Shown here piece after piece: positions 1,913 to 42,425 of a stretch of DNA of 64,000 nucleotides. The stretch comes from a plasmid: assembly GCF_054482525.1 (NCBI RefSeq), contig NZ_JBTHVG010000003.1. One strand, written 5' to 3'. The position numbers were made by a program, and so were the translations under genes. Position 1 is the first letter of the stretch. Each line of letters starts with the position of its first letter. The notes beneath the pieces are model-generated. The model made no database searches. It had not been told where the DNA came from and saw only the letters and a list, made by a program, of their open reading frames with translations.

Positions 1913-4900
1913 TTATTGTACGTTAAGGTTATTTTTTGACCTGCCTAATTTAGCTGGCCTCAGCCGACGAAACTTACCGGCTGACGGTATCCGGTTGCTT
2001 TTCCATATATAATCGCCTGTCAGATTGATGTGTTCCCAGCCTAGCGGGGACAAATGCGACAGTAGTTGCTCGTTGATCTTCACTCCCTTACGCTTCAGAG
2101 CATCGACAGCTCTTTCCATATAGACGGTATTCCACAGGGATATGGCAGCTGTCAGGAGCGTCAGTCCACTGGCGCGATAGCTCTGATTTTCCGGTTTTCG
2201 GTCCCTGATTTCTCCCAGCCGGTGCATAAATACCGCTCGCGCCAGCGCGTTACGGGCTTCACCTTTATTCAGCCCCGCCTGTACCCGCCGACGCAGTGCA
2301 GGATCGCGGAACCAGTCGAGCATAAACAGAGTTCGTTCAATACGGCCAATTTCTCTCAGTGCTTTGGCCAGCCCGTTTTGCTTGGGGTAGCTGGCAAGCT
2401 TTTTCAGCATCAGGGATGCCGTCACGGTTCCCTGCTTTATCGAGGTTGCCAGACGCAGCACTTCACGCCAGTGAATTTCGATCTCTTTCAGATTCAGGCT
2501 GGTTGTTGATATCAGTGACTGAAGCGCCGGGTACTGGCCTGCTTTCCCTTTGATAAATAGCTTCTTGTCGTGGAGATTCCTGATTCGCGGACAGAACGCA
2601 AATCCCAGCAGATGCATCAGGGCAAAGACATGATCGGTGAAACCCGCTGTATCGGTGTAATGCTCCCTGATTTCCAGGTCGCTTTCGTGGTACAGCAAGC
2701 CATCGAGCACATGGGTTGAATCTCTGACCCGACTGATTATGCAGGTGTAAAACGGGCTGTATTGATCCGAAATATGGGTATAAAACTGACGTCCGGGCTC
2801 CTGCCCGTATTTCGGGTTAACCTGCCCTGCGTAGCGGCCTGATCTGCCTGTTCTGAAATTCTGTCCATCTGATGATGATGTTGTCCCGTCTCCCCAGAAT
2901 GCCGCCAGCGGCCTTTTCCCCTGCGCGTTTACCAGCTCTGCAAGGGCTGCTGAATAGGTTTCGTCGCGGATGTACCATGCCTGAATATCTTCGAGTGATG
3001 ATTTGGTGCTACCGGGGCAGGCTTCCGCCATTTTGGTCAGGCCAAGATTGATGCCATCCGCAAGAATGGTGGTGAGAAGCAGGCGGATATCGGGACGGGT
3101 AATGTCAGTTTTTATATGCGAAAAATGTCGGGTAAACGTCGTCCAGCTGTTTACCTCATCGAGAATTTCCGTGATTTTAGGGCGCGGTAGCATGCTGTAA
3201 ACCAGCTCTGCCAGCGGTGAAACCTGCACCGGAACGCTGTTATCCAGCGGAGAGACTTTTACGCCCCTGTAAGATATTTCCACATCGGGCAGTTCACCAA
3301 GGGCAGCCATGGCATTGACCTCTTCAAGCCTGGACTGAAGCAGGGTCATACGGCTGGTAATGTACTCATGATAATCAGCAGATACGGGAAGTGGCAGCGC
3401 CGGTGTGAGTTTGTCAAAGTCCTTTTCGGGAATGAGGTAATCATCAAAATTTTTGTAGCGGCGTGAACCTTTGACCCAGATGTCCCCGGAACGCAACGCC
3501 CCCTTAAGCTCGCTGAGCGCACAAAATTCATAGTACTGCCGGTCAATACCCGCAGGTGTAATTACCACCTTGCGCCAACTTTCTGGGACAAACTCAAGCG
3601 GCGCGGTGGCCGGAACTTTACGTGACTGCTTCCGGTACATATCCTTGATCACAACCAGCGCATCAGCCAGAGGTTGCGCTGCCGGAGTTGCGATTAACTG
3701 TAAAGCTGACAACATGCGCGGGGCATATTTCCGTAATGTGCTGTATTTCTCGGTAATAATATGCAGCGGGTCAAAATTATTTTTTCTGGCGAGATGGCGT
3801 GTTTCCTCCAGACTGGCGACAAATTCAGGCCATGGGAGTATGTTTTCTATTGCGAGCCATGGATCTCCCCCGGAATCACGGGCATCAGACAGCGCCTGAC
3901 CGACATTGATGTACTGCCTCAGTTTTGACTGGATCAGCTTTCCGGTCTGCTGAAGGCGCTCAGCCTGTGTTCTTTTGGCTTTGCTGAAAAGGCTGTTCAG
4001 CATTCGCTCATGCAACTCAATCACTTCGTCTGTCAGTGTGGCTCTGGCTTCTTCCAGCACGCACACCAGGATCGCATGACGCCGGGCTGCTGAAAATCGG
4101 GTCAAATCCCGGCTGCTCATCTTTCGGCCTTCCCGCGCCAGTTTCAGCAACCGGTTCTGGTGAATGGTACGATCTATACCTTCCGGTAATGCCAGCGATT
4201 CAATGCTACTGAGCCGATCAAGGTGTTGCAGCACGTTCTTACCATTGATTTTACCCGGAGGTTGCAGAAGCCATGTCAGCCTGGAAGACTGATTATCCGA
4301 TGACTCAAGTAAACAATCCAGAGCATCCCTGTGAGCCGGAGTTAACGGGGCATTCAGGGTCTGAAACACGATTTTATCGCCGCCTGCCATGGCCTCAGCA
4401 CAGGAACGCTCCACGACATCAATCGAGGGGATTATCACGTTGTTCTGCCGGAGCCAGACCAGTAGTTCTTCGGCCAGGAGAATACCTTTATCGGTGCGCG
4501 TCGCCATCGGCAGCAGGTGTGTAATACAGTCCTGCTGTATTTTGCCGGTGAACGCTTTTAAGCCAAGATAGCGGTACAGTTCGGTTAAATGTTCGCGTCG
4601 CGTAGTTTCCCTGCCGGAAAGGTAAGCTGGCCAGAGATCCCCGGTAAGTTTTAGCCTGCTGGCGATATGCTTCAGCAGCGCATCAGAGGGAGGGATTTTT
4701 TTATCCGGGGTAAAGCCGACATTTTTCAGATAGCAAAGAAGGACGGCAAAACCAAAACGGCTGGCAGGTTTACGGTGGGCACTGATAAGTGCCAGATCAT
4801 GTTCACTGAAATACGCCATCCGGGTCAGCGTTAACTCTTCGTCCGGTAATGCCAGTAATGATTCTCTTTCCGACAGAGAAAGAATCTGCCTCCTTGCCAT
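1913..4900 (-). CDS. tnpA: Tn3-family transposase TnpA
   Basis: 995-aa ORF, typical Tn3-family transposase length and N-terminus; stop codon lies inside the terminal IR. Confidence 0.9.
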   Translation of the reverse strand: MARRQILSLSERESLLALPDEELTLTRMAYFSEHDLALISAHRKPASRFGFAVLLCYLKNVGFTPDKKIPPSDALLKHIASRLKLTGDLWPAYLSGRETTRREHLTELYRYLGLKAFTGKIQQDCITHLLPMATRTDKGILLAEELLVWLRQNNVIIPSIDVVERSCAEAMAGGDKIVFQTLNAPLTPAHRDALDCLLESSDNQSSRLTWLLQPPGKINGKNVLQHLDRLSSIESLALPEGIDRTIHQNRLLKLAREGRKMSSRDLTRFSAARRHAILVCVLEEARATLTDEVIELHERMLNSLFSKAKRTQAERLQQTGKLIQSKLRQYINVGQALSDARDSGGDPWLAIENILPWPEFVASLEETRHLARKNNFDPLHIITEKYSTLRKYAPRMLSALQLIATPAAQPLADALVVIKDMYRKQSRKVPATAPLEFVPESWRKVVITPAGIDRQYYEFCALSELKGALRSGDIWVKGSRRYKNFDDYLIPEKDFDKLTPALPLPVSADYHEYITSRMTLLQSRLEEVNAMAALGELPDVEISYRGVKVSPLDNSVPVQVSPLAELVYSMLPRPKITEILDEVNSWTTFTRHFSHIKTDITRPDIRLLLTTILADGINLGLTKMAEACPGSTKSSLEDIQAWYIRDETYSAALAELVNAQGKRPLAAFWGDGTTSSSDGQNFRTGRSGRYAGQVNPKYGQEPGRQFYTHISDQYSPFYTCIISRVRDSTHVLDGLLYHESDLEIREHYTDTAGFTDHVFALMHLLGFAFCPRIRNLHDKKLFIKGKAGQYPALQSLISTTSLNLKEIEIHWREVLRLATSIKQGTVTASLMLKKLASYPKQNGLAKALREIGRIERTLFMLDWFRDPALRRRVQAGLNKGEARNALARAVFMHRLGEIRDRKPENQSYRASGLTLLTAAISLWNTVYMERAVDALKRKGVKINEQLLSHLSPLGWEHINLTGDYIWKSNRIPSAGKFRRLRPAKLGRSKNNLNVQ

Positions 4901-32143: not shown

Positions 32144-32983
32144 CTAGGCATGATCTAACCCTCGGTCTCTGGCGTCGCGACTGCGAAATTTCGCGAGGGT
32201 TTCCGAGAAGGTGATTGCGCTTCGCAGATCTCCAGGCGCGTGGGTGCGGACGTAGTCAGCGCCATTGCCGATCGCGTGAAGTTCCGCCGCAAGGCTCGCT
32301 GGACCCAGATCCTTTACAGGAAGGCCAACGGTGGCGCCCAAGAAGGATTTCCGCGACACCGAGACCAATAGCGGAAGCCCCAACGCCGACTTCAGCTTTT
32401 GAAGGTTCGACAGCACGTGCAGCGATGTTTCCGGTGCGGGGCTCAAGAAAAATCCCATCCCCGGATCGAGGATGAGCCGGTCGGCAGCGACCCCGCTCCG
32501 TCGCAAGGCGGAAACCCGCGCCTCGAAGAACCGCACAATCTCGTCGAGCGCGTCTTCGGGTCGAAGGTGACCGGTGCGGGTGGCGATGCCATCCCGCTGC
32601 GCTGAGTGCATAACCACCAGCCTGCAGTCCGCCTCAGCAATATCGGGATAGAGCGCAGGGTCAGGAAATCCTTGGATATCGTTCAGGTAGCCCACGCCGC
32701 GCTTGAGCGCATAGCGCTGGGTTTCCGGTTGGAAGCTGTCGATTGAAACACGGTGCATCTGATCGGACAGGGCGTCTAAGAGCGGCGCAATACGTCTGAT
32801 CTCATCGGCCGGCGATACAGGCCTCGCGTCCGGATGGCTGGCGGCCGGTCCGACATCCACGACGTCTGATCCGACTCGCAGCATTTCGATCGCCGCGGTG
32901 ACAGCGCCGGCGGGGTCTAGCCGCCGGCTCTCATCGAAGAAGGAGTCCTCGGTGAGATTCAGAATGCCGAACACCGTCACCAT
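32144..32983 (-). CDS. sul1: sulfonamide-resistant dihydropteroate synthase Sul1
   Basis: 279-aa product from internal Met [26 protein letters not shown]..., matching Sul1 as recalled. Confidence 0.95.
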
Positions 32984-33185
32984 GGCGTCGGCCTCCGCAG
33001 CGACTTCCACGATGGGGATCGGGCGAGCAAAAAGGCAGCAATTATGAGCCCCATACCTACAAAGCCCCACGCATCAAGCTTTTGCCCATGAAGCAACCAG
33101 GCAATGGCTGTAATTATGACGACGCCGAGTCCCGACCAGACTGCATAAGCAACACCGACAGGGATGGATTTCAGAACCAGAGAAC
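32977..33185 (-). pseudogene. qacEdelta1: qacEdelta1 efflux gene, additionally 5'-truncated
   Basis: C-terminal ~68 aa match QacEdelta1 ([22 protein letters not shown]...); stop overlaps the sul1 start as usual; N-terminal part replaced. Confidence 0.75.
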
Positions 33186-33189
33186 ATGT

Positions 33190-33327
33190 CATTGTACTGG
33201 AAGGCGCATTACAACTGCGGCTGGGGGATGAGTGGCACACCGTTTCTGCCGGGGAATCCCTGCGCTTCCATGCGGATATCCCGCACGCTTACGCCAATCC
33301 CGGTAAGGCCATTGTGACAGGGGTCTG
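33190..33327 (+). pseudogene. C-terminal fragment of a cupin-domain protein gene
   Basis: Hand translation ...[43 protein letters not shown], with the stop supplied inside the Tn2/Tn3 IR. Confidence 0.4.
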
Positions 33328-33357
33328 ACGCTCAGTGGAACGAAAACTCACGTTAAG
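33320..33357. repeat. Tn2/Tn3 38-bp terminal inverted repeat
   Basis: GGGGTCTGACGCTCAGTGGAACGAAAACTCACGTTAAG. Confidence 0.85.
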
Positions 33358-34655
33358 CAACGTTTTCTGCCTCTGACGCCTCTTTTAATGGTCTCAGATG
33401 TCCTTTGGTCACCAGTTCTGCCAGCGTGAAGGAATAATGGCCGAGCATATTGATATGTCCGTGGCAAAGCGGGGAGAGGCGTGCGATATCTTCATCATTC
33501 AGTGTTTCACCCTGCGCCCGGAGATGATCCAGGGCTGCCTGCATATAAATAGTGTTCCATAACACGACGGCGTTAGTGACCAGCCCCAGTGTGCCCAGTT
33601 GATCTTCCTGACCGTCGGTATATCGTTTTCTTATCTCACCTTTTTGACCGTGACAGATGGCTCTGGCAACGGCATGGCGACTTTCTCCCCGATTAAGCTG
33701 GGTCAGAATGCGCCGGCGGTAATCTTCATCATCAATATAATTAAGCAGATACAGCGTTTTGTTGATGCGCCCCACTTCAATGATTGCCTGAGTCAGTCCG
33801 GAAGGACGTTCACTTTTCAGCAATGAACGGACCAGCACTGAAACCTGTACTTTGCCCAGCTTCAGGGAGCCAGCGGTCCGGATCATTTCGTCCCACTGAA
33901 GGACTATTTTTCGGGGATCTGATTGCCCTCTGGCAATATCATTCAGCACGCCATAGTCGGCATCATGGTCCATTCGCCAGAAAACCGAAGCACCGGCATC
34001 AGCCAGGCGTGGAGAAAACTGGTATCCCAGCAGCCAGAAAAGGCCAAAGACAAGTTCGCTGGCACCTGCTGTATCGGTCATAATTTCGGTTGGATTCAGC
34101 CCGGTCTCCTGTTCCAGAAGACCTTCCAGCACAAAGATAGAGTCCCTCAGCGTCCCCGGTATAACGATGCCATGAAAGCCGGAATACTGATCGGACACAA
34201 AGTTGTACCAGGTGATCCCTCTGTTATTACCAAAGTATTTGCGGTTCGGTCCGGCATTGATTGTTCTGACTGGCGTAACAAAGCGCATTCCATCTGCAGA
34301 TGCCACTTCTCCTCCACCCCATATCTGTGCCAGTGGCAGCGTTGCCTGAAAATCAACCAGTCTGGCATTAGCGCTGGTGATAGTTTCAGCCCGCAGATAG
34401 TTCGCTTTTGTCCAGTTCAGCCGGTGTCGGGTCAGTGCAGGAACATTTGATCTGATCAGTGGTTCCAGACCGATATTGCAGGCTTCAGCCATCAGCACGG
34501 CGCTGATGCTGACGGGCAGATCATCAACTCTGGCACTGGCTTCACTAGCATGGAAAAACTCATCAGCAAATCCGGTATGGGCGTTAATTTCGAGCAGCAA
34601 CTCCGTTAAATCCACCGGAGGGAGTAGATCACTGATCATTTTGCTCAGTCGTTTC
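33353..34655 (-). pseudogene. tnpA: Tn2/Tn3 transposase, 3' fragment truncated by IS26
   Basis: 435-aa ORF with Tn3-type TnpA C-terminal sequence ending at the IR; cut at 34656 by IS26 copy 5. Confidence 0.85.
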
Positions 34656-35475
34656 GGCACTGTTGCAAATAGTCGGTGGTGATAAACTTATCATCCCCTT
34701 TTGCTGATGGAGCTGCACATGAACCCATTCAAAGGCCGGCATTTTCAGCGTGACATCATTCTGTGGGCCGTACGCTGGTACTGCAAATACGGCATCAGTT
34801 ACCGTGAGCTGCAGGAGATGCTGGCTGAACGCGGAGTGAATGTCGATCACTCCACGATTTACCGCTGGGTTCAGCGTTATGCGCCTGAAATGGAAAAACG
34901 GCTGCGCTGGTACTGGCGTAACCCTTCCGATCTTTGCCCGTGGCACATGGATGAAACCTACGTGAAGGTCAATGGCCGCTGGGCGTATCTGTACCGGGCC
35001 GTCGACAGCCGGGGCCGCACTGTCGATTTTTATCTCTCCTCCCGTCGTAACAGCAAAGCTGCATACCGGTTTCTGGGTAAAATCCTCAACAACGTGAAGA
35101 AGTGGCAGATCCCACGATTCATCAACACGGATAAAGCGCCCGCCTATGGTCGCGCGCTTGCTCTGCTCAAACGCGAAGGCCGGTGCCCGTCTGACGTTGA
35201 ACACCGACAGATTAAGTACCGGAACAACGTGATTGAATGCGATCATGGCAAACTGAAACGGATAATCAACGCCACGCTGGGATTTAAATCCATGAAGACG
35301 GCTTACGCCACCATCAAAGGTATTGAGGTGATGCGTGCACTACGCAAAGGCCAGGCCTCAGCATTTTATTATGGTGATCCCCTGGGCGAAATGCGCCTGG
35401 TAAGCAGAGTTTTTGAAATGTAAGGCCTTTGAATAAGACAAAAGGCTGCCTCATCGCTAACTTTGCAACAGTGCC
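34656..35475 (+). mobile_element. tnp26: IS26 copy 5 (Tnp26 G184N variant)
   Basis: 820 bp; Tnp26 coding 34719-35423; RIINATLGF instead of RIIGATLGF, plus one silent change. Confidence 0.95.
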
Positions 35476-35625
35476 GCCCCAGCAGCATCTCCAGCTGTGA
35501 ACGCTGTTCGGCTGACGGTATCAGTGCCAGTTTGTTCCACAGGCGCAACGTCGCCTTTTCCCTTACCTCTGAAATCAACCGGGTCAGCGTAGTGGCTCCG
35601 GGGAGAATAATAGTCTATCCCGGCA

Positions 35626-36003
35626 TTGCCAGTCGGGGATATTAAAAAGAGTATAGGTTTTTATTGCGATAAACTAGGTTTCACTTTGGTTCACCATGAA
35701 GATGGATTCGCAGTTCTAATGTGTAATGAGGTTCGGATTCATCTATGGGAGGCAAGTGATGAAGGCTGGCGCTCTCGTAGTAATGATTCACCGGTTTGTA
35801 CAGGTGCGGAGTCGTTTATTGCTGGTACTGCTAGTTGCCGCATTGAAGTAGAGGGAATTGATGAATTATATCAACATATTAAGCCTTTGGGCATTTTGCA
35901 CCCCAATACATCATTAAAAGATCAGTGGTGGGATGAACGAGACTTTGCAGTAATTGATCCCGACAACAATTTGATTAGCTTTTTTCAACAAATAAAAAGC
36001 TAA
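35626..36003 (+). CDS. bleO: bleomycin-binding protein, BleO-like
   Basis: Low-GC ORF matching the pUB110-type BleO sequence as recalled (PVGDIKKSIGFYCDKLGFTLVHHEDGFAVLMCNEVRIHLWEA...); the track starts it at a TTG, so the true N-terminus is uncertain. Confidence 0.75.
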   Translation: MPVGDIKKSIGFYCDKLGFTLVHHEDGFAVLMCNEVRIHLWEASDEGWRSRSNDSPVCTGAESFIAGTASCRIEVEGIDELYQHIKPLGILHPNTSLKDQWWDERDFAVIDPDNNLISFFQQIKS

Positions 36004-36020
36004 AATCTATTATTAATCTG

Positions 36021-36085
36021 TTCAGCAATCGGGCGCGATTGCTGAATAAAAGATACGAGAGACCTCTCTTGTATCTTTTTTATTT
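36021..36085 (+). terminator. tandem hairpins with T-run downstream of bleO
   Basis: TTCAGCAATC-GGGCGC-GATTGCTGAA then AGATACGAGAGA-CC-TCTCTTGTATCT followed by TTTTTTATTTT. Confidence 0.55.
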
Positions 36086-36090
36086 TGAGT

Positions 36091-36185
36091 GGTTTTGTCC
36101 GTTACACTAGAAAACCGAAAGACAATAAAAATTTTATTCTTGCTGAGTCTGGCTTTCGGTAAGCTAGACAAAACGGACAAAATAA
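36091..36185. repeat. long imperfect palindrome in the bleO module
   Basis: TTTTGTCCGTT...CCGAAAGAC...GTCTGGCTTTCGG...AACGGACAAAA, nested inverted repeats over ~95 bp. Confidence 0.4.
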
Positions 36186-36322
36186 AAATCTAAATATGCT
36201 TGAACAACTTGTAACTTAAATTCATAACTGTATTTTGCCATAAAAAATGACCTCCCATAAGTTAGATTTTTGGTCTAACTTATGGGGGTCAGTTCATTCT
36301 ACACTTGGGCTGCATGTTTTGA

Positions 36323-36715
36323 TTAATTATCTAATATCTCCGGATCTCCTGTAAAGGAATATAAAACTGCCTGCATGTTTTTCAAATAAAATACGGTGAA
36401 TTTCCCATCATCAGCGCTATACCAATCTCTCAAAAACGGATTTGCTTCAAGCATTGCTTCCCTTGCTTCCACGGTATCATCAATTACGGCTTCGCCGGTG
36501 AGCCGAATCCATTTTCCTTTTGCCATACCTGAGACTTCCACCTTTGAATTTGCCAATAACTGCTGATAAACTTTTTTCTGATTGGTTGTACCAAGATAGA
36601 CCTTGCCATTCCTCTCCATGGCTGCATTAAACGGTCTGACCCTTGGCTGGTCTCCTTCAACGGTTGCAAAATAAAAAGTTTTTGCTTCATTTAAAAAATC
36701 AACAACTTGACTCAT
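36323..36715 (-). CDS. pyridoxamine 5'-phosphate oxidase-like (split-barrel flavin-binding) protein
   Basis: 130-aa low-GC ORF; family assignment from general resemblance, unverified. Confidence 0.5.
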   Translation of the reverse strand: MSQVVDFLNEAKTFYFATVEGDQPRVRPFNAAMERNGKVYLGTTNQKKVYQQLLANSKVEVSGMAKGKWIRLTGEAVIDDTVEAREAMLEANPFLRDWYSADDGKFTVFYLKNMQAVLYSFTGDPEILDN

Positions 36716-36759
36716 CCTTTTTTACCTCCATAAATAAATTTTTCTTTACTTTTCTTTGA

Positions 36760-36997
36760 CCTAAATTCCACGTGCATTTTTTATTAGCTTAAAAGAACAC
36801 TATTTCACGAAGAATTTAAACTGATACTCCCACATTGTAACATTATTTACCACCACCTTTCAATCTTTTTCAATAAATTATTGATTGCAACTTTTGAGTA
36901 AAGATACTTATTAAACCCTGCAAGTTATCCACAGAGCAACACTCGATTTTCAAGATGATATCTTTATTATACCAGACATTTTTCATACACTTCCTTG
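36760..36997 (-). mobile_element. divergent ISEcp1-like (IS1380 family) 3'-end remnant, truncated by IS26
   Basis: Reverse complement aligns at roughly 85% identity with the ISEcp1 remnant at 27456-27664 and ends in ACGTGGAATTTAGG about 45 bp upstream of the 36715 start codon. Confidence 0.6.
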
Positions 36998-37817
36998 GGC
37001 ACTGTTGCAAAGTTAGCGATGAGGCAGCCTTTTGTCTTATTCAAAGGCCTTACATTTCAAAAACTCTGCTTACCAGGCGCATTTCGCCCAGGGGATCACC
37101 ATAATAAAATGCTGAGGCCTGGCCTTTGCGTAGTGCACGCATCACCTCAATACCTTTGATGGTGGCGTAAGCCGTCTTCATGGATTTAAATCCCAGCGTG
37201 GCGTTGATTATCCGTTTCAGTTTGCCATGATCGCATTCAATCACGTTGTTCCGGTACTTAATCTGTCGGTGTTCAACGTCAGACGGGCACCGGCCTTCGC
37301 GTTTGAGCAGAGCAAGCGCGCGACCATAGGCGGGCGCTTTATCCGTGTTGATGAATCGTGGGATCTGCCACTTCTTCACGTTGTTGAGGATTTTACCCAG
37401 AAACCGGTATGCAGCTTTGCTGTTACGACGGGAGGAGAGATAAAAATCGACAGTGCGGCCCCGGCTGTCGACGGCCCGGTACAGATACGCCCAGCGGCCA
37501 TTGACCTTCACGTAGGTTTCATCCATGTGCCACGGGCAAAGATCGGAAGGGTTACGCCAGTACCAGCGCAGCCGTTTTTCCATTTCAGGCGCATAACGCT
37601 GAACCCAGCGGTAAATCGTGGAGTGATCGACATTCACTCCGCGTTCAGCCAGCATCTCCTGCAGCTCACGGTAACTGATGCCGTATTTGCAGTACCAGCG
37701 TACGGCCCACAGAATGATGTCACGCTGAAAATGCCGGCCTTTGAATGGGTTCATGTGCAGCTCCATCAGCAAAAGGGGATGATAAGTTTATCACCACCGA
37801 CTATTTGCAACAGTGCC
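36998..37817 (-). mobile_element. tnp26: IS26 copy 6 (Tnp26 G184N variant)
   Basis: 820 bp; Tnp26 coding 37050-37754 on minus strand; Asn184. Confidence 0.95.
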
Positions 37818-38073
37818 AGTTTTATTGTTACATTTAAATCCACGCCGGGATCGCGGTTTTTTATCCCCCCCCTGGACCGCACATAAAGTGCAACAATTAT
37901 TCTTGCACTTAGTTAAGCGCCTTCCTACAATCGCCGCGATAGTGTATTCGAAATTGTTACAGTTTTGTGGCGATGATCGACACAAATGGCCTTAAGCCAG
38001 CCCGGACAAAGGAAGTGGCGCGGCTTCTCACGCTGCGTCTTGCCCGGCGGCTACATTTACCGGAATAAAAATA

Positions 38074-39249
38074 ATGAGCCTGCAAAAAACCTGGGGAAAC
38101 ATTCACCTGACCGCGCTCGGCGCGATGATGCTCTCCTTTCTGCTCGTCGGCTGCGACGACAGCGTCGCACAGAATGCTGCGCCTCCCGCCCCGACGGTCA
38201 GCGCCGCTAAGGTGCTGGTGAAGTCGATCAGTCAGTGGGATAGTTTTAACGGTCGCATTGAAGCGGTGGAGAGCGTTCAGCTTCGCCCTCGCGTCTCGGG
38301 ATACATTGATAAAGTGAATTACACTGACGGCCAGGAGGTGAAAAAGGGCCAGGTGCTGTTCACGATAGATGACAGAACCTATCGCGCCGCGCTGGAGCAG
38401 GCGCAGGCGGCGTTGGCAAGAGCCAAAACGCAGGCCAGCCTCGCGCAAAGCGAGGCGAACCGCACCGATAAATTAGTCCATACCAACCTCGTCTCCCGTG
38501 AAGAGTGGGAGCAGCGCCGGTCAGCCGCGGTTCAGGCGCAGGCCGACGTTCGCGCCGCGCAGGCGGCGGTGGATGCCGCGCAGCTTAACCTCGACTTCAC
38601 CAAAGTGACCGCCCCTATTGACGGCCGCGCCAGCCGGGCGCTGATCACCAGCGGTAACCTGGTCACCGCGGGCGACACCGCCAGCGTGCTCACCACCCTG
38701 GTCTCGCAAAAGACGGTGTACGTCTACTTTGACGTCGACGAGTCAACCTACCTCCACTATCAAAACCTCGCCCGCCGCGGGCAAGGCGCGTCCAGCGATA
38801 ATCAGGCGCTCCCGGTGGAGATTGGCCTGGTGGGCGAGGAGGGTTACCCCCACCAGGGCAAAGTGGATTTTCTCGATAATCAGTTAACGCCGAGTACCGG
38901 CACCATCCGCATGCGTGCGCTGCTGGATAACTCGCAGCGTCTGTTCACGCCGGGGCTGTTTGCCCGCGTGCGTCTGCCGGGCAGCGCAGAGTTCAAAGCC
39001 ACGCTGATCGACGACAAAGCGGTACTGACCGATCAGGATCGTAAATACGTCTATATCGTTGATAAAGATGGTAAAGCACAGCGCCGCGACATTACCCCAG
39101 GGCGGCTGGCAGACGGTTTACGCATCGTTCAGAAGGGGTTGAATCCTGGGGATAGCGTCATCGTCGACGGCTTACAAAAAGTGTTTATGCCGGGTATGCC
39201 GGTTAACGCCAAAACCGTTGCCATGACCTCCAGCGCCACCCTTAACTGA
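38074..39249 (+). CDS. oqxA: RND efflux periplasmic adaptor OqxA
   Basis: 391-aa ORF with lipoprotein signal (LLVGC) and membrane-fusion-protein sequence matching OqxA as recalled. Confidence 0.95.
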   Translation: MSLQKTWGNIHLTALGAMMLSFLLVGCDDSVAQNAAPPAPTVSAAKVLVKSISQWDSFNGRIEAVESVQLRPRVSGYIDKVNYTDGQEVKKGQVLFTIDDRTYRAALEQAQAALARAKTQASLAQSEANRTDKLVHTNLVSREEWEQRRSAAVQAQADVRAAQAAVDAAQLNLDFTKVTAPIDGRASRALITSGNLVTAGDTASVLTTLVSQKTVYVYFDVDESTYLHYQNLARRGQGASSDNQALPVEIGLVGEEGYPHQGKVDFLDNQLTPSTGTIRMRALLDNSQRLFTPGLFARVRLPGSAEFKATLIDDKAVLTDQDRKYVYIVDKDGKAQRRDITPGRLADGLRIVQKGLNPGDSVIVDGLQKVFMPGMPVNAKTVAMTSSATLN

Positions 39250-39272
39250 TCCCTAATCAGAGAATCCAAGAC

Positions 39273-42200
39273 ATGGACTTTTCCCGCTTTTTTATCGACA
39301 GGCCGATTTTCGCCGCGGTGCTGTCGATTTTAATTTTTATCACCGGGTTAATCGCTATCCCACTGCTGCCGGTGAGCGAATATCCGGATGTCGTCCCGCC
39401 GAGCGTCCAGGTGCGCGCGGAGTATCCCGGCGCCAACCCGAAAGTGATTGCCGAGACCGTGGCGACGCCGCTGGAGGAAGCGATCAACGGCGTTGAAAAC
39501 ATGATGTACATGAAATCGGTCGCCGGCTCCGACGGCGTGCTGGTCACCACCGTCACCTTCCGCCCGGGTACCGACCCGGATCAGGCGCAGGTTCAGGTGC
39601 AGAACCGCGTCGCGCAGGCCGAAGCGCGTCTGCCGGAGGATGTACGCCGTCTGGGGATCACCACCCAGAAGCAGTCTCCGACGCTGACCCTGGTGGTGCA
39701 TCTGTTCTCCCCCGGCGGGAAGTACGACTCGCTGTATATGCGCAACTACGCCACGCTGAAAGTGAAGGATGAGCTGGCGCGCCTGCCCGGCGTCGGCCAG
39801 ATCCAGATTTTTGGCTCCGGTGAATATGCGATGCGCGTCTGGCTGGATCCCAATAAGGTCGCTGCCCGCGGTCTGACGGCCTCGGATGTGGTGACGGCGA
39901 TGCAGGAGCAAAACGTCCAGGTGTCTGCCGGACAGCTTGGCGCCGAGCCGCTGCCGCAGGAGAGCGATTTCCTGATCTCCATTAACGCCCAGGGCCGTCT
40001 GCATACCGAAGAAGAGTTTGGCAATATCATTCTGAAAACGGCGCAGGATGGCTCGCTGGTCCGCCTGCGCGACGTGGCGCGCATCGAGATGGGTTCCGGT
40101 AGCTATGCGCTGCGCTCCCAGCTCAACAATAAGGATGCGGTCGGGATCGGTATCTTCCAGTCACCCGGCGCTAACGCCATCGATCTGTCGAACGCGGTAC
40201 GCGCCAAAATGGCCGAGCTGGCCACCCGCTTCCCGGAAGATATGCAATGGGCGGCGCCGTACGACCCGACGGTTTTCGTCCGCGACTCCATCCGCGCGGT
40301 GGTGCAGACGCTGCTGGAGGCGGTAGTGCTGGTGGTGCTGGTAGTGATCCTGTTCCTGCAGACCTGGCGCGCGTCGATTATCCCGTTGATCGCTGTGCCG
40401 GTATCGGTGGTGGGTACCTTCAGCATTCTCTATCTGCTGGGCTTCTCGCTGAATACCCTGAGCCTGTTCGGGCTGGTACTGGCTATCGGTATCGTGGTGG
40501 ACGACGCCATCGTGGTGGTGGAGAACGTCGAGCGTAATATCGAAGAGGGGCTTGCGCCGCTTGCCGCGGCGTATCAGGCGATGCGTGAGGTCTCCGGGCC
40601 GATTATCGCCATTGCGCTGGTGCTGTGTGCGGTGTTCGTGCCGATGGCGTTTCTCTCCGGGGTCACCGGCCAGTTCTACAAACAGTTCGCGGTGACCATC
40701 GCCATCTCGACGGTGATCTCGGCCATCAACTCGCTGACGCTCTCCCCGGCGCTGGCGGCCCTGCTGTTAAAGCCGCACGGCGCGAAGAAAGACCTCCCTA
40801 CCCGGCTGATCGATCGCCTGTTTGGCTGGATTTTCCGTCCGTTTAACCGCTTTTTCCTGCGCAGCTCGAACGGCTATCAGGGACTGGTAGGCAAAACGCT
40901 TGGACGCCGTGGCGCAGTGTTTGCGGTGTACCTGCTGCTGCTCTGCGCCGCTGGGGTGATGTTTAAAGTCGTCCCCGGCGGGTTTATTCCCACCCAGGAT
41001 AAGCTGTATCTCATTGGCGGCGTGAAGATGCCGGAAGGGTCGTCGCTGGCGCGCACCGACGCGGTGATCCGCAAAATGAGCGAGATCGGGATGAATACCG
41101 AAGGGGTCGACTATGCGGTCGCTTTCCCGGGGCTTAACGCGCTGCAGTTCACCAACACGCCGAATACCGGGACGATCTTTTTTGGCCTGAAACCGTTCGA
41201 CCAGCGCAAACACACGGCGGCGGAAATTAACGCGGAGATCAACGCCAAAATCGCGCAAATCCAGCAGGGCTTTGGCTTTTCCATCCTGCCGCCGCCGATT
41301 TTAGGTCTGGGTCAGGGTTCCGGCTACTCCCTGTACATCCAGGATCGCGGAGGGCTGGGCTATGGCGCGCTGCAAAGCGCGGTGAATGCGATGTCCGGGG
41401 CGATTATGCAGACGCCGGGGATGCACTTCCCGATCTCGACTTACCAGGCTAACGTGCCGCAGCTGGACGTGCAGGTCGATCGCGATAAGGCGAAAGCGCA
41501 GGGGGTATCGCTAACCGATCTGTTCGGTACGCTGCAGACCTATCTCGGCTCGTCTTATGTCAATGACTTTAACCAGTTCGGGCGTACCTGGCGCGTGATG
41601 GCCCAGGCTGACGGACCATACCGCGAGAGCGTGGAAGATATCGCCAATCTGCGCACCCGCAATAATCAGGGCGAAATGGTACCGATCGGCAGTATGGTGA
41701 ATATCAGTACCACCTACGGGCCGGATCCGGTGATCCGCTACAACGGTTATCCGGCGGCGGACCTGATTGGCGATGCCGATCCGCGGGTCCTCTCTTCTTC
41801 GCAGGCGATGACGCATCTGGAAGAGCTGTCGAAGCAGATCCTGCCGAATGGGATGAATATTGAGTGGACGGATCTCAGCTTCCAGCAGGCCACCCAGGGC
41901 AACACGGCGCTGATCGTCTTCCCGGTGGCGGTGCTGCTGGCATTCCTCGTACTGGCCGCGCTGTATGAAAGCTGGACCCTGCCGCTGGCGGTGATCCTTA
42001 TCGTACCGATGACGATGCTCTCCGCGCTGTTTGGCGTCTGGCTGACCGGGGGCGATAACAACGTCTTCGTGCAGGTGGGTCTGGTGGTCCTGATGGGCCT
42101 GGCCTGTAAAAACGCCATTCTGATCGTCGAGTTTGCCCGCGAGCTGGAGATCCAGGGGAAAGGCATCATGGAAGCGGCGCTGGAGGCATGCCGCCTGCGT

Positions 42201-42425
42201 CTGCGCCCGATCGTGATGACCTCCATCGCCTTTATCGCCGGGACCATTCCGCTGATCCTCGGCCACGGCGCGGGGGCGGAAGTCCGCGGCGTCACCGGGA
42301 TCACGGTGTTCTCCGGGATGCTGGGCGTGACGCTCTTCGGTCTGTTCCTGACGCCGGTGTTTTACGTGACGCTACGGAAACTGGTGACCCGCAGGAAGCC
42401 GGTCCAGGAGGATCTGCCCGCCTAG
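39273..42425 (+). CDS. oqxB: RND efflux transporter OqxB
   Basis: 1050-aa ORF, 12-TM RND permease, 23 bp downstream of oqxA. Confidence 0.95.
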   Translation: MDFSRFFIDRPIFAAVLSILIFITGLIAIPLLPVSEYPDVVPPSVQVRAEYPGANPKVIAETVATPLEEAINGVENMMYMKSVAGSDGVLVTTVTFRPGTDPDQAQVQVQNRVAQAEARLPEDVRRLGITTQKQSPTLTLVVHLFSPGGKYDSLYMRNYATLKVKDELARLPGVGQIQIFGSGEYAMRVWLDPNKVAARGLTASDVVTAMQEQNVQVSAGQLGAEPLPQESDFLISINAQGRLHTEEEFGNIILKTAQDGSLVRLRDVARIEMGSGSYALRSQLNNKDAVGIGIFQSPGANAIDLSNAVRAKMAELATRFPEDMQWAAPYDPTVFVRDSIRAVVQTLLEAVVLVVLVVILFLQTWRASIIPLIAVPVSVVGTFSILYLLGFSLNTLSLFGLVLAIGIVVDDAIVVVENVERNIEEGLAPLAAAYQAMREVSGPIIAIALVLCAVFVPMAFLSGVTGQFYKQFAVTIAISTVISAINSLTLSPALAALLLKPHGAKKDLPTRLIDRLFGWIFRPFNRFFLRSSNGYQGLVGKTLGRRGAVFAVYLLLLCAAGVMFKVVPGGFIPTQDKLYLIGGVKMPEGSSLARTDAVIRKMSEIGMNTEGVDYAVAFPGLNALQFTNTPNTGTIFFGLKPFDQRKHTAAEINAEINAKIAQIQQGFGFSILPPPILGLGQGSGYSLYIQDRGGLGYGALQSAVNAMSGAIMQTPGMHFPISTYQANVPQLDVQVDRDKAKAQGVSLTDLFGTLQTYLGSSYVNDFNQFGRTWRVMAQADGPYRESVEDIANLRTRNNQGEMVPIGSMVNISTTYGPDPVIRYNGYPAADLIGDADPRVLSSSQAMTHLEELSKQILPNGMNIEWTDLSFQQATQGNTALIVFPVAVLLAFLVLAALYESWTLPLAVILIVPMTMLSALFGVWLTGGDNNVFVQVGLVVLMGLACKNAILIVEFARELEIQGKGIMEAALEACRLRLRPIVMTSIAFIAGTIPLILGHGAGAEVRGVTGITVFSGMLGVTLFGLFLTPVFYVTLRKLVTRRKPVQEDLPA

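Follow-up and report, generated by a model that had tools for sequence, protein, structure and literature searches.

The long imperfect palindrome at positions 36091-36185 of the plasmid segment analysed here (64,000 nt, referred to as the window) is, with a probability of roughly 0.8, the third hairpin (H3) of the spacer that holds the single-strand origin ssoU in pUB110, carried here as an orphaned pUB110 fragment that is most likely inert. In pUB110/pMV158-type plasmids this spacer separates the resistance gene from oriT/mobV and holds the RNA-polymerase-dependent ssoU (palU, within 'BA3'). The origin ssoU has been known since 1989, and the module that now surrounds the palindrome is likewise already known. 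The palindrome alone has little significance; its value is that of a molecular fossil, which marks the bleO module as derived from a Gram-positive plasmid.

The nested inverted repeats that the first-pass annotation had described at 36091-36185 were recovered at that place by a repeat finder. The outer arms (36093-36103, TTTTGTCCGTT; 36172-36182, AACGGACAAAA) are 11 nt long and 100% complementary, and an imperfect 18-nt pair is nested inside them (36107-36124/36150-36167), within which lie the arms of an inner helix of 8 bp (36114-36121, ACCGAAAG; 36153-36160, CTTTCGGT). An alternative outermost pair is formed by 36077-36087 and 36178-36188. Folded as single-stranded DNA, the segment 36075-36195 reaches -21.2 kcal/mol on the + strand (dinucleotide shuffles -9.1 +/- 2.3; z -5.2) and -19.1 kcal/mol on the - strand (z -4.1), and shuffles folding as well were found in 0/200 cases on the + strand and 0/200 on the - strand. 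The folding of the palindrome exceeds chance. A covariance-model scan of 35400-37100 on both strands against Rfam 15 gave no match up to E = 1, a null result that is expected for a DNA element, and a promoter scan called no promoter-like hexamers in the palindrome.

The palindrome is located 3' of the bleO stop codon (36001-36003) and of the bleO terminator (36048-36079), and upstream of position 36323, where the PNPOx-family gene ends ('orf' or 'orf63'; 36323-36715, - strand; identified from its ORF, Pfam PNPOx_N at 1.2e-9 and RefSeq). The latter, convergent with bleO, is the oxidase-like neighbour of the first-pass annotation, which had placed the palindrome correctly between the two.

From 35609 to 36189, the window is 100% identical to pUB110 (NC_001384 complement, about 1398-1978), followed by abrupt divergence at 36189|36190. 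The identity extends from bleO through the palindrome and bears out the Gram-positive plasmid origin proposed earlier for bleO. In pUB110 another 214 bases separate the equivalent of 36189 from the oriT used by the MobV relaxase, after which the mob gene follows, and the spacer from the bleO stop codon to oriT measures 403 nt, with spacer position p corresponding to window position 36003 + p approximately. A plasmid search with 35980-36330 as query matched 884 records. The whole query is present in enterobacterial records (Escherichia, Salmonella, Klebsiella and others), while several hundred plasmids of Enterococcus, Staphylococcus, Lactococcus and Ligilactobacillus share only 36031-36189 (159 bp), which in these plasmids has the same orientation and is flanked by mobV on one side and by a resistance gene, either tet(L) or a dfrK cassette, on the other. 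The first option of the first-pass annotation, a remnant single-strand origin, is supported by the identity with pUB110 together with the position in the spacer to which ssoU is mapped. Of the two outcomes that had been named as evidence against it, weak folding and a lack of similarity to pUB110-type sequences, neither was found.

The mapping of ssoU to this spacer draws on several published descriptions. The pMV158 map places ssoU upstream of oriT, with the nick at 3595/3596 (PMC5737340); in our comparison an integrated pMV158-like copy (L003) stood in for pMV158 itself (NC_010096). In pLS1 ssoU is lost (PMC6607859), and the EcoRI fragment deleted in pLS1 would start at a GAATTC site found ∼25 bp ahead of the shared block in the integrated pMV158-like copy. 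Conversely, pMVS, which keeps pMV158 to about coordinate 3545, retains ssoU (PMC5090054). BA3 is the pUB110 region beside the bleomycin gene, and a lagging-strand initiation signal was placed there (PMC7006159). The sso of pUB110 is quoted as 340 nt (PMC4595007), which is approximately the length of the block that pMV158-type plasmids have in common with it as far as oriT (31-403 in coordinates of the 403-nt spacer). Homology with the tet(L)-mobV (pMV158-type) plasmids begins at 36031. The 340-nt size, together with the co-conservation of H3 and its constant linkage to H4-H5, suggests that H3 lies inside the functional ssoU and not beside it.

Folded as single-stranded DNA, the 403-nt pUB110 spacer (-87.9 kcal/mol, z -10.8) forms a series of separate hairpins, among which H3 forms alone. 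H1 (spacer 21-46; window 36021-36046, + strand), detected as an inverted repeat and in the spacer fold, is a small hairpin just after bleO, and the homology with the pMV158-type plasmids begins inside it, so that only its 3' half is common to them. H2 (spacer 48-79; window 36048-36087, + strand, with the stem at 36048-36079 followed by a T-run) was called as an intrinsic terminator by the terminator scan; it sits at the 5' edge of the ssoU block, and its stem is kept in 21 diverged relatives. H3, the palindrome (spacer 93-181; window 36092-36183, + strand), was delimited from folds, 28 homologues, pair counts and RNAalifold. H4 (spacer 182-263) follows directly after H3 in the consensus structure, then come H5 (spacer 274-343), which is branched, a small hairpin (spacer 363-378) and oriT. 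The basal stem of H4 shows abundant compensatory change in the relatives, for example TAAAAATTGGCAAGGG/CCCTTGCTGATTTTTA versus TGGGAATTGGCAAGGG/CCCTTGCCAATTCCCA.

The apical loop of H4 reads TAGCGT, which we take to be the CS-6 consensus, in about a fifth of 30 variants. Either TAGCGT or CAGCGT occupies the loop in L008, L015, L016, L038, L039, L043 and L048. Not all members of this origin family have the CS-6 motif, since the loop of pUB110 reads GAGTGA and that of most other relatives GAGTGA or GAGCGA. CS-6 is a conserved 6-nt sequence in the loop of an sso, and terminates primer synthesis (PMC8860593). Two further groups of plasmids share other parts of the spacer: Bacillus cereus-group plasmids have only the H4 region in common (84-92% identity), without H3, and small staphylococcal plasmids only spacer positions 320-375, a block that is absent from the window and is probably the RSB-type conserved block. 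A comparative map of H2-H5, with the CS-6-like loop of H4, could aid the annotation of origins that genome pipelines leave blank.

Conservation of H3 was assessed with homologues from three sources. These were diverged plasmid matches (pSES22, an E. faecalis plasmid and pUR3912, 81-94% identity), a pattern scan in which each species was represented by a single genome, with 16 loci of which 13 were genuine (from genera that include Virgibacillus, Brevibacillus, Jeotgalibacillus, Savagea and Limosilactobacillus), and a pattern scan in metagenomes, with 26 loci of which 24 were genuine. Chance pattern matches were excluded (L021 from Asticcacaulis, L023 from a β-proteobacterial MAG, L019 from Paenibacillus, and L034 and L037 from metagenomes), and after removal of duplicates 28 distinct sequences from plasmids, genomes and metagenomes were aligned. 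One metagenome contig of 9 kb (L032, Ga0209487_1005943) contains copies of the element at 788, 4721 and 8656, ∼3.93 kb apart, and probably represents the head-to-tail multimeric assembly of a small rolling-circle plasmid.

The outer helix of H3 (36093-36103 paired with 36172-36182, + strand, 11 bp, from pair counts) forms standard pairs at all 11 bp in 28/28 sequences. One of its positions is occupied by T-A in 20, A-T in 3, C-G in 3 and T-G in 2 of the 28, and another by G-C in 27 and G-T in 1. This result is unbiased because the outer helix was in neither search pattern. All 8 bp of the inner helix are likewise paired in 100% of the 28 sequences; its 5' arm was assigned from pair counts and its 3' arm was fixed by the search patterns, and the evidence is weaker here because the patterns fixed one or both arms. 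Unbiased covariation is therefore confined to a single position of the outer helix, where six double changes are seen, and to wobble pairs. The covariation score is above that of all 500 shuffles, and the percentage of paired bases is unremarkable (33/500) because most columns never vary. Conserved intrastrand pairing, one of the features expected of an ssoU-type origin, was found for both helices.

The 4-bp middle helix (CTAG/CTAG), which contributes to the 'nested' look of the palindrome, was rejected as a conserved feature: it is paired in 36% of the sequences and confined to the pUB110 lineage. An AT-rich mini-hairpin at the apex is paired in 56% when held in a fixed register, and some apical pairing is present in most variants, in differing registers. 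An unguided RNAalifold prediction from 21 diverged full-length relatives returned H2, H3, H4 and H5, with double changes at 22 of the 79 pairs, mostly in H4.

The wobble pairs occur on the + strand only, in four variant G-T/T-G cases and in the closing pair G36092-T36183 (G-T in 19/21); read on the - strand, the same positions would be mismatches (A-C or C-A). The minimal oriT oligonucleotide of pMV158 and its nick are likewise written on the + strand, the one that becomes single-stranded. Wobbles restricted to the nicked strand fit an element that acts as folded single-stranded DNA in one orientation, which is how ssos work (PMC5703833; PMC4595007).

The apical part of H3 carries the motif TTGCTGAGT (36140-36148, + strand), of which GCTGAGT is invariant in 28/28 homologues, an invariance that is partly imposed since GCTGAG(T) belonged to the search patterns. 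In the intact ssoU region, TTGCTGAG occurs twice, in apical H3 (TTGCTGAGT..GGC) and in H5 (TTGCTGAGGTGGCAGAGG). The H5 copy (pUB110 spacer about 290-300; L004 about 1284-1294, - strand) is nearly invariant in the 21 relatives and was in no search pattern. The TTGCTGAG motif may be a recognition sequence.

What remains of this region in the window is H1, H2, all of H3 and the first 6 nt of the 5' arm of H4 (AAAAAT, 36184-36189, + strand, from the pUB110 alignment). Compared with a full-length origin of 340 nt, 159 nt of the shared block are left, and both H5 and the 3' block are absent. TAGCGW, the mark of CS-6, does not occur on either strand within 36031-36189. A search that allowed three mismatches found neither H4 sequence nor an oriT of the pUB110/pMV158 type anywhere in the 64 kb, and mob of this type is absent from the window. 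By these comparisons, the retained piece is without the ssoA-like core of the origin. In the relatives the element stands upstream of oriT/mobV on the nicked strand; a comparable position on a rolling-circle-displaced or oriT-transferred strand was not found for the window copy.

Loss of H4 has also occurred independently, at nearly the same place, in other lineages. In pUR3912 (L005, about 3160-3230), IS257 lies 5 bases before the window breakpoint, in Mammaliicoccus sciuri plasmids H4 is interrupted by ISSau9 (IS21 family), and a Bacillus coagulans contig has a different break. Altogether, breaks of ssoU at or inside H4, 3' of H3, are present in several unrelated lineages (L005, L002/L006 at about 5200/3200, L013, L017 and L047), with differing causes that include IS257 and ISSau9. 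It looks as though H4 or its AT-rich base is a recurrent point of insertion or deletion, or as though its loss is tolerated once mob is gone.

These observations can be combined into the following history. In the parent plasmids, the displaced or oriT-transferred strand, equivalent to the + strand of the window, would fold into the H2 terminator, H3, H4 and H5; host RNA polymerase would bind the folded DNA, make a short primer and start synthesis of the complementary strand. H2, H3 and 6 nt of H4 would then have travelled as the 3' flank of bleO, the remainder having been removed when the IS3-family fragment, the PNPOx gene and ISEnca1 were joined to it at 36189|36190, and the piece would later have been enclosed by IS26 on a large enterobacterial plasmid. 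The hairpin is most likely inactive here because H4-H5, oriT and mob are missing, and probably a rolling-circle Rep as well, and we infer that it is inert in the enterobacterial host.

A different view, to which we give a small share of the probability, is that H3 is separate from the lagging-strand origin and is a conserved element of the mobilisation cassette in its own right. As such it might act after transfer, either as a promoter on the single strand or as a hairpin that binds a protein, or it might be a structural insulator that separates the resistance-gene terminator from the H4-H5 core. Such a role would suit the autonomous folding of H3, which abuts H4 and has no pairs in common with it, as well as the placement of the ssoA-like hallmarks (the CS-6-like loop and the small-staphylococcal block) in H4 and further 3' instead of in H3; the Bacillus cereus-group plasmids show that the H4 region can be carried without H3, and the recurrence of the H3 motif in H5 could mean that it is a recognition sequence. 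Nevertheless, in all full-length relatives H3 is found with H4-H5 in the same order and orientation, and without H3 the 403-nt spacer could hardly accommodate the 340-nt sso of pUB110. In addition, ssoU is described as larger than ssoA (∼160 nt) (PMC5703833), and the literature examined reports no distinct function for the H3 hairpin.

It is very improbable that the palindrome terminates transcription, or acts as a barrier in both directions, between bleO and the convergent PNPOx gene, the simplest explanation offered in the first-pass annotation. As a GC-containing hairpin between convergent genes it does resemble rho-independent terminators, and its stability as RNA could slow polymerase or protect 3' ends. 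However, the stem lacks the T-run of such terminators on either strand, the sequence after it being A-rich on both, and the terminator scan does not call the palindrome. Both genes have canonical terminators of their own, at 36048-36079 (+) for bleO and at 36286-36254 (-) for the PNPOx gene, and transcripts should rarely reach the palindrome. Its sequence is moreover conserved in relatives that have oriT/mobV downstream in the same orientation, which is not something that a terminator needs.

We consider it just as improbable that H3 is an autonomous unit of ssoU (for instance the part to which ssoU owes its broad host range, or a promoter or primer site on the single strand) that possibly still acts on the transferred strand; if true, Gram-negative conjugative plasmids would have co-opted a piece of a Gram-positive origin. 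The least credible proposal is that the hairpin is kept in enterobacterial plasmids for its use, such as priming or promoting on the conjugatively transferred strand: the intact module is present in no fewer than 453 plasmid records and 146 complete E. coli genomes, and conjugative plasmids do carry single-strand promoters and priming hairpins (PMC4595007), but the core of the origin is missing, some copies of the module lack parts of the region with no apparent consequence (rows H21 and H40), and the enterobacterial copies are all 99-100% identical with one common junction, so that their abundance reflects recent spread with oqxAB and IS26 and not selection for the hairpin.

The window element can be compared with several known systems. 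The ssoU/palU of pUB110 and pMV158 has the identical sequence, on the same strand as the oriT nick, and the same hairpin architecture; the window differs in keeping H2 and H3 only (159 of the about 350 nt of the shared block) and in its host replicon, a large enterobacterial plasmid, while pUB110 and pMV158 are rolling-circle plasmids. The ssoA (palA) of pT181, pE194 and pLS1 is an element of the same kind, a single-strand origin that folds, works in one orientation and is recognised by RNA polymerase. RSB and CS-6 are the conserved marks of ssoA, and ssoU is reported to share RSB (PMC5703833; PMC8860593). Unlike ssoA, which is a single hairpin of ∼160 nt, the window fragment has neither TAGCGW nor the 3' small-staphylococcal block, and H3 has no sequence similarity to the small staphylococcal plasmids. 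The ssoT of pBAA1 and the sso1 of ICEBs1 are multi-hairpin origins that need several stem-loops (PMC4595007), comparable with the row H3-H4-H5, but belong to a sequence family different from that of the window element.

The palindrome is part of an IS26-bounded module. The left boundary is an IS26 (34656-35475, + strand; transposase ORF 34701-35423), whose ends were computed from the 820-bp IS26 layout and which identical records annotate as IS26. To the left of the module (32144-34660) are sul- and Tn3-family fragments. Following the left IS26 is a higher-GC stretch of 133 bp (35476-35608, - strand; GC about 0.5), which is probably a tnpA fragment of Tn2/Tn3 (deltaTn2), judging from its GC content, the neighbouring Tn3-family transposase fragment on the other side of the left IS26, and published maps in which deltaTn2 is interrupted by IS26 (PMC5645526). 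Next comes a 5'-truncated bleO (35609-36003, + strand; pUB110 identity from AGTCTATCCCGG, with a Glyoxalase/Ble Pfam match), for which RefSeq sets the start at 35617. It has lost the promoter, the ribosome-binding site and the 7 nt (ATGTTAC) with which the pUB110 reading frame begins, and expression of bleO, if there is any, must be driven from outside.

On the far side of the palindrome lie the first 108 bp of an IS3-family element (36190-36297, - strand), with its 5' end TGAACTGACCCCC at 36297 and a cut at 36190. It includes the start of orfA (MAKYSYEFKLQVVQAYL, 36241 to 36190, - strand) and shows 76-81% identity to ISEfa10-like elements of Enterococcus plasmids, the OrfA of which starts MAKYTFELKLKIVHDYL and has HTH_28 and HTH_Tnp_1 domains. 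A 13-bp hairpin in this end (36254-36286, - strand; from the repeat finder and the terminator scan), also present in the Enterococcus elements, is usable as the terminator of the PNPOx gene. An IS200/IS605 end had been considered for 36190-36297 (a Y1 transposase gene is nearby in E. faecium) and was ruled out by alignment and translation.

The PNPOx gene is followed, 46 bases upstream of it, by the IRR of ISEnca1 (ACGTGGAATTTAGG, 36775-36762), which opens a 3' end of this IS1380-family element (36762-36997, - strand) that is 87% identical to ISEcp1 and truncated by IS26. The IRR matches the published ISEnca1 sequence (PMC9535334), and the remnant was named deltaISEnca1 in previous descriptions of the module (PMC5645526, PMC7823714). 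The right boundary is a second IS26 (36998-37817, - strand; ORF 37050-37772; IS26 end GGCACTGTTGCAAA), which coincides with the left arm of Tn6010. After it (37818-42425) come the Tn6010 genes oqxA at 38074-39249 and oqxB at 39273-42425.

The segment 34656-37817 corresponds to the published arrangement deltaTn2-IS26-ble(blmS)-orf(orf63)-deltaISEnca1-IS26, next to Tn6010 (oqxAB) (PMC5645526; PMC7823714). The module was first seen in pOLA52 and later in many IncHI2, IncX1, IncP and IncF plasmids (PMC5645526; PMC7823714), and pOLA52 (NC_010378) is among the 100% matches. The published maps show only ble/blmS, orf and deltaISEnca1 between the IS26 copies (PMC5645526, PMC7823714). Neither of these papers mentions pUB110 or nimC, and they describe neither the ssoU remnant nor the 108-bp fragment of an IS3-family element. 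Both are annotation details and no new biology; what they add is a record, at the level of single bases, that the bleO module adjacent to oqxAB was cut from a pUB110-type rolling-circle plasmid six bases into the fourth hairpin.

Elements of the IS1380 family mobilise adjacent DNA by means of a surrogate right end. At the junction, the end of the foreign DNA (36185-36203, - strand), ...ATATTTAG, resembles the true end of ISEnca1, ...AATTTAGG (36775-36762). This resemblance suggests that 36190-36761 may be the passenger of a one-ended ISEnca1 transposition unit that landed in H4. Besides ISEnca1, the unit would have carried the PNPOx gene together with the first part of an adjoining IS3-family element; its insertion into H4 of a pUB110-type plasmid would probably have taken place in a Gram-positive host, with IS26 capturing the segment later. 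The reciprocal junction would be expected to have the ISEnca1 IRL beside ...AAAAT TGGCAAGGGTTTAAAGG, with a 5-bp duplication of AAAAT; this junction has been lost from the module, and the history is plausible but unproven. The IS3-family end and ISEnca1 also point to a Gram-positive site of assembly.
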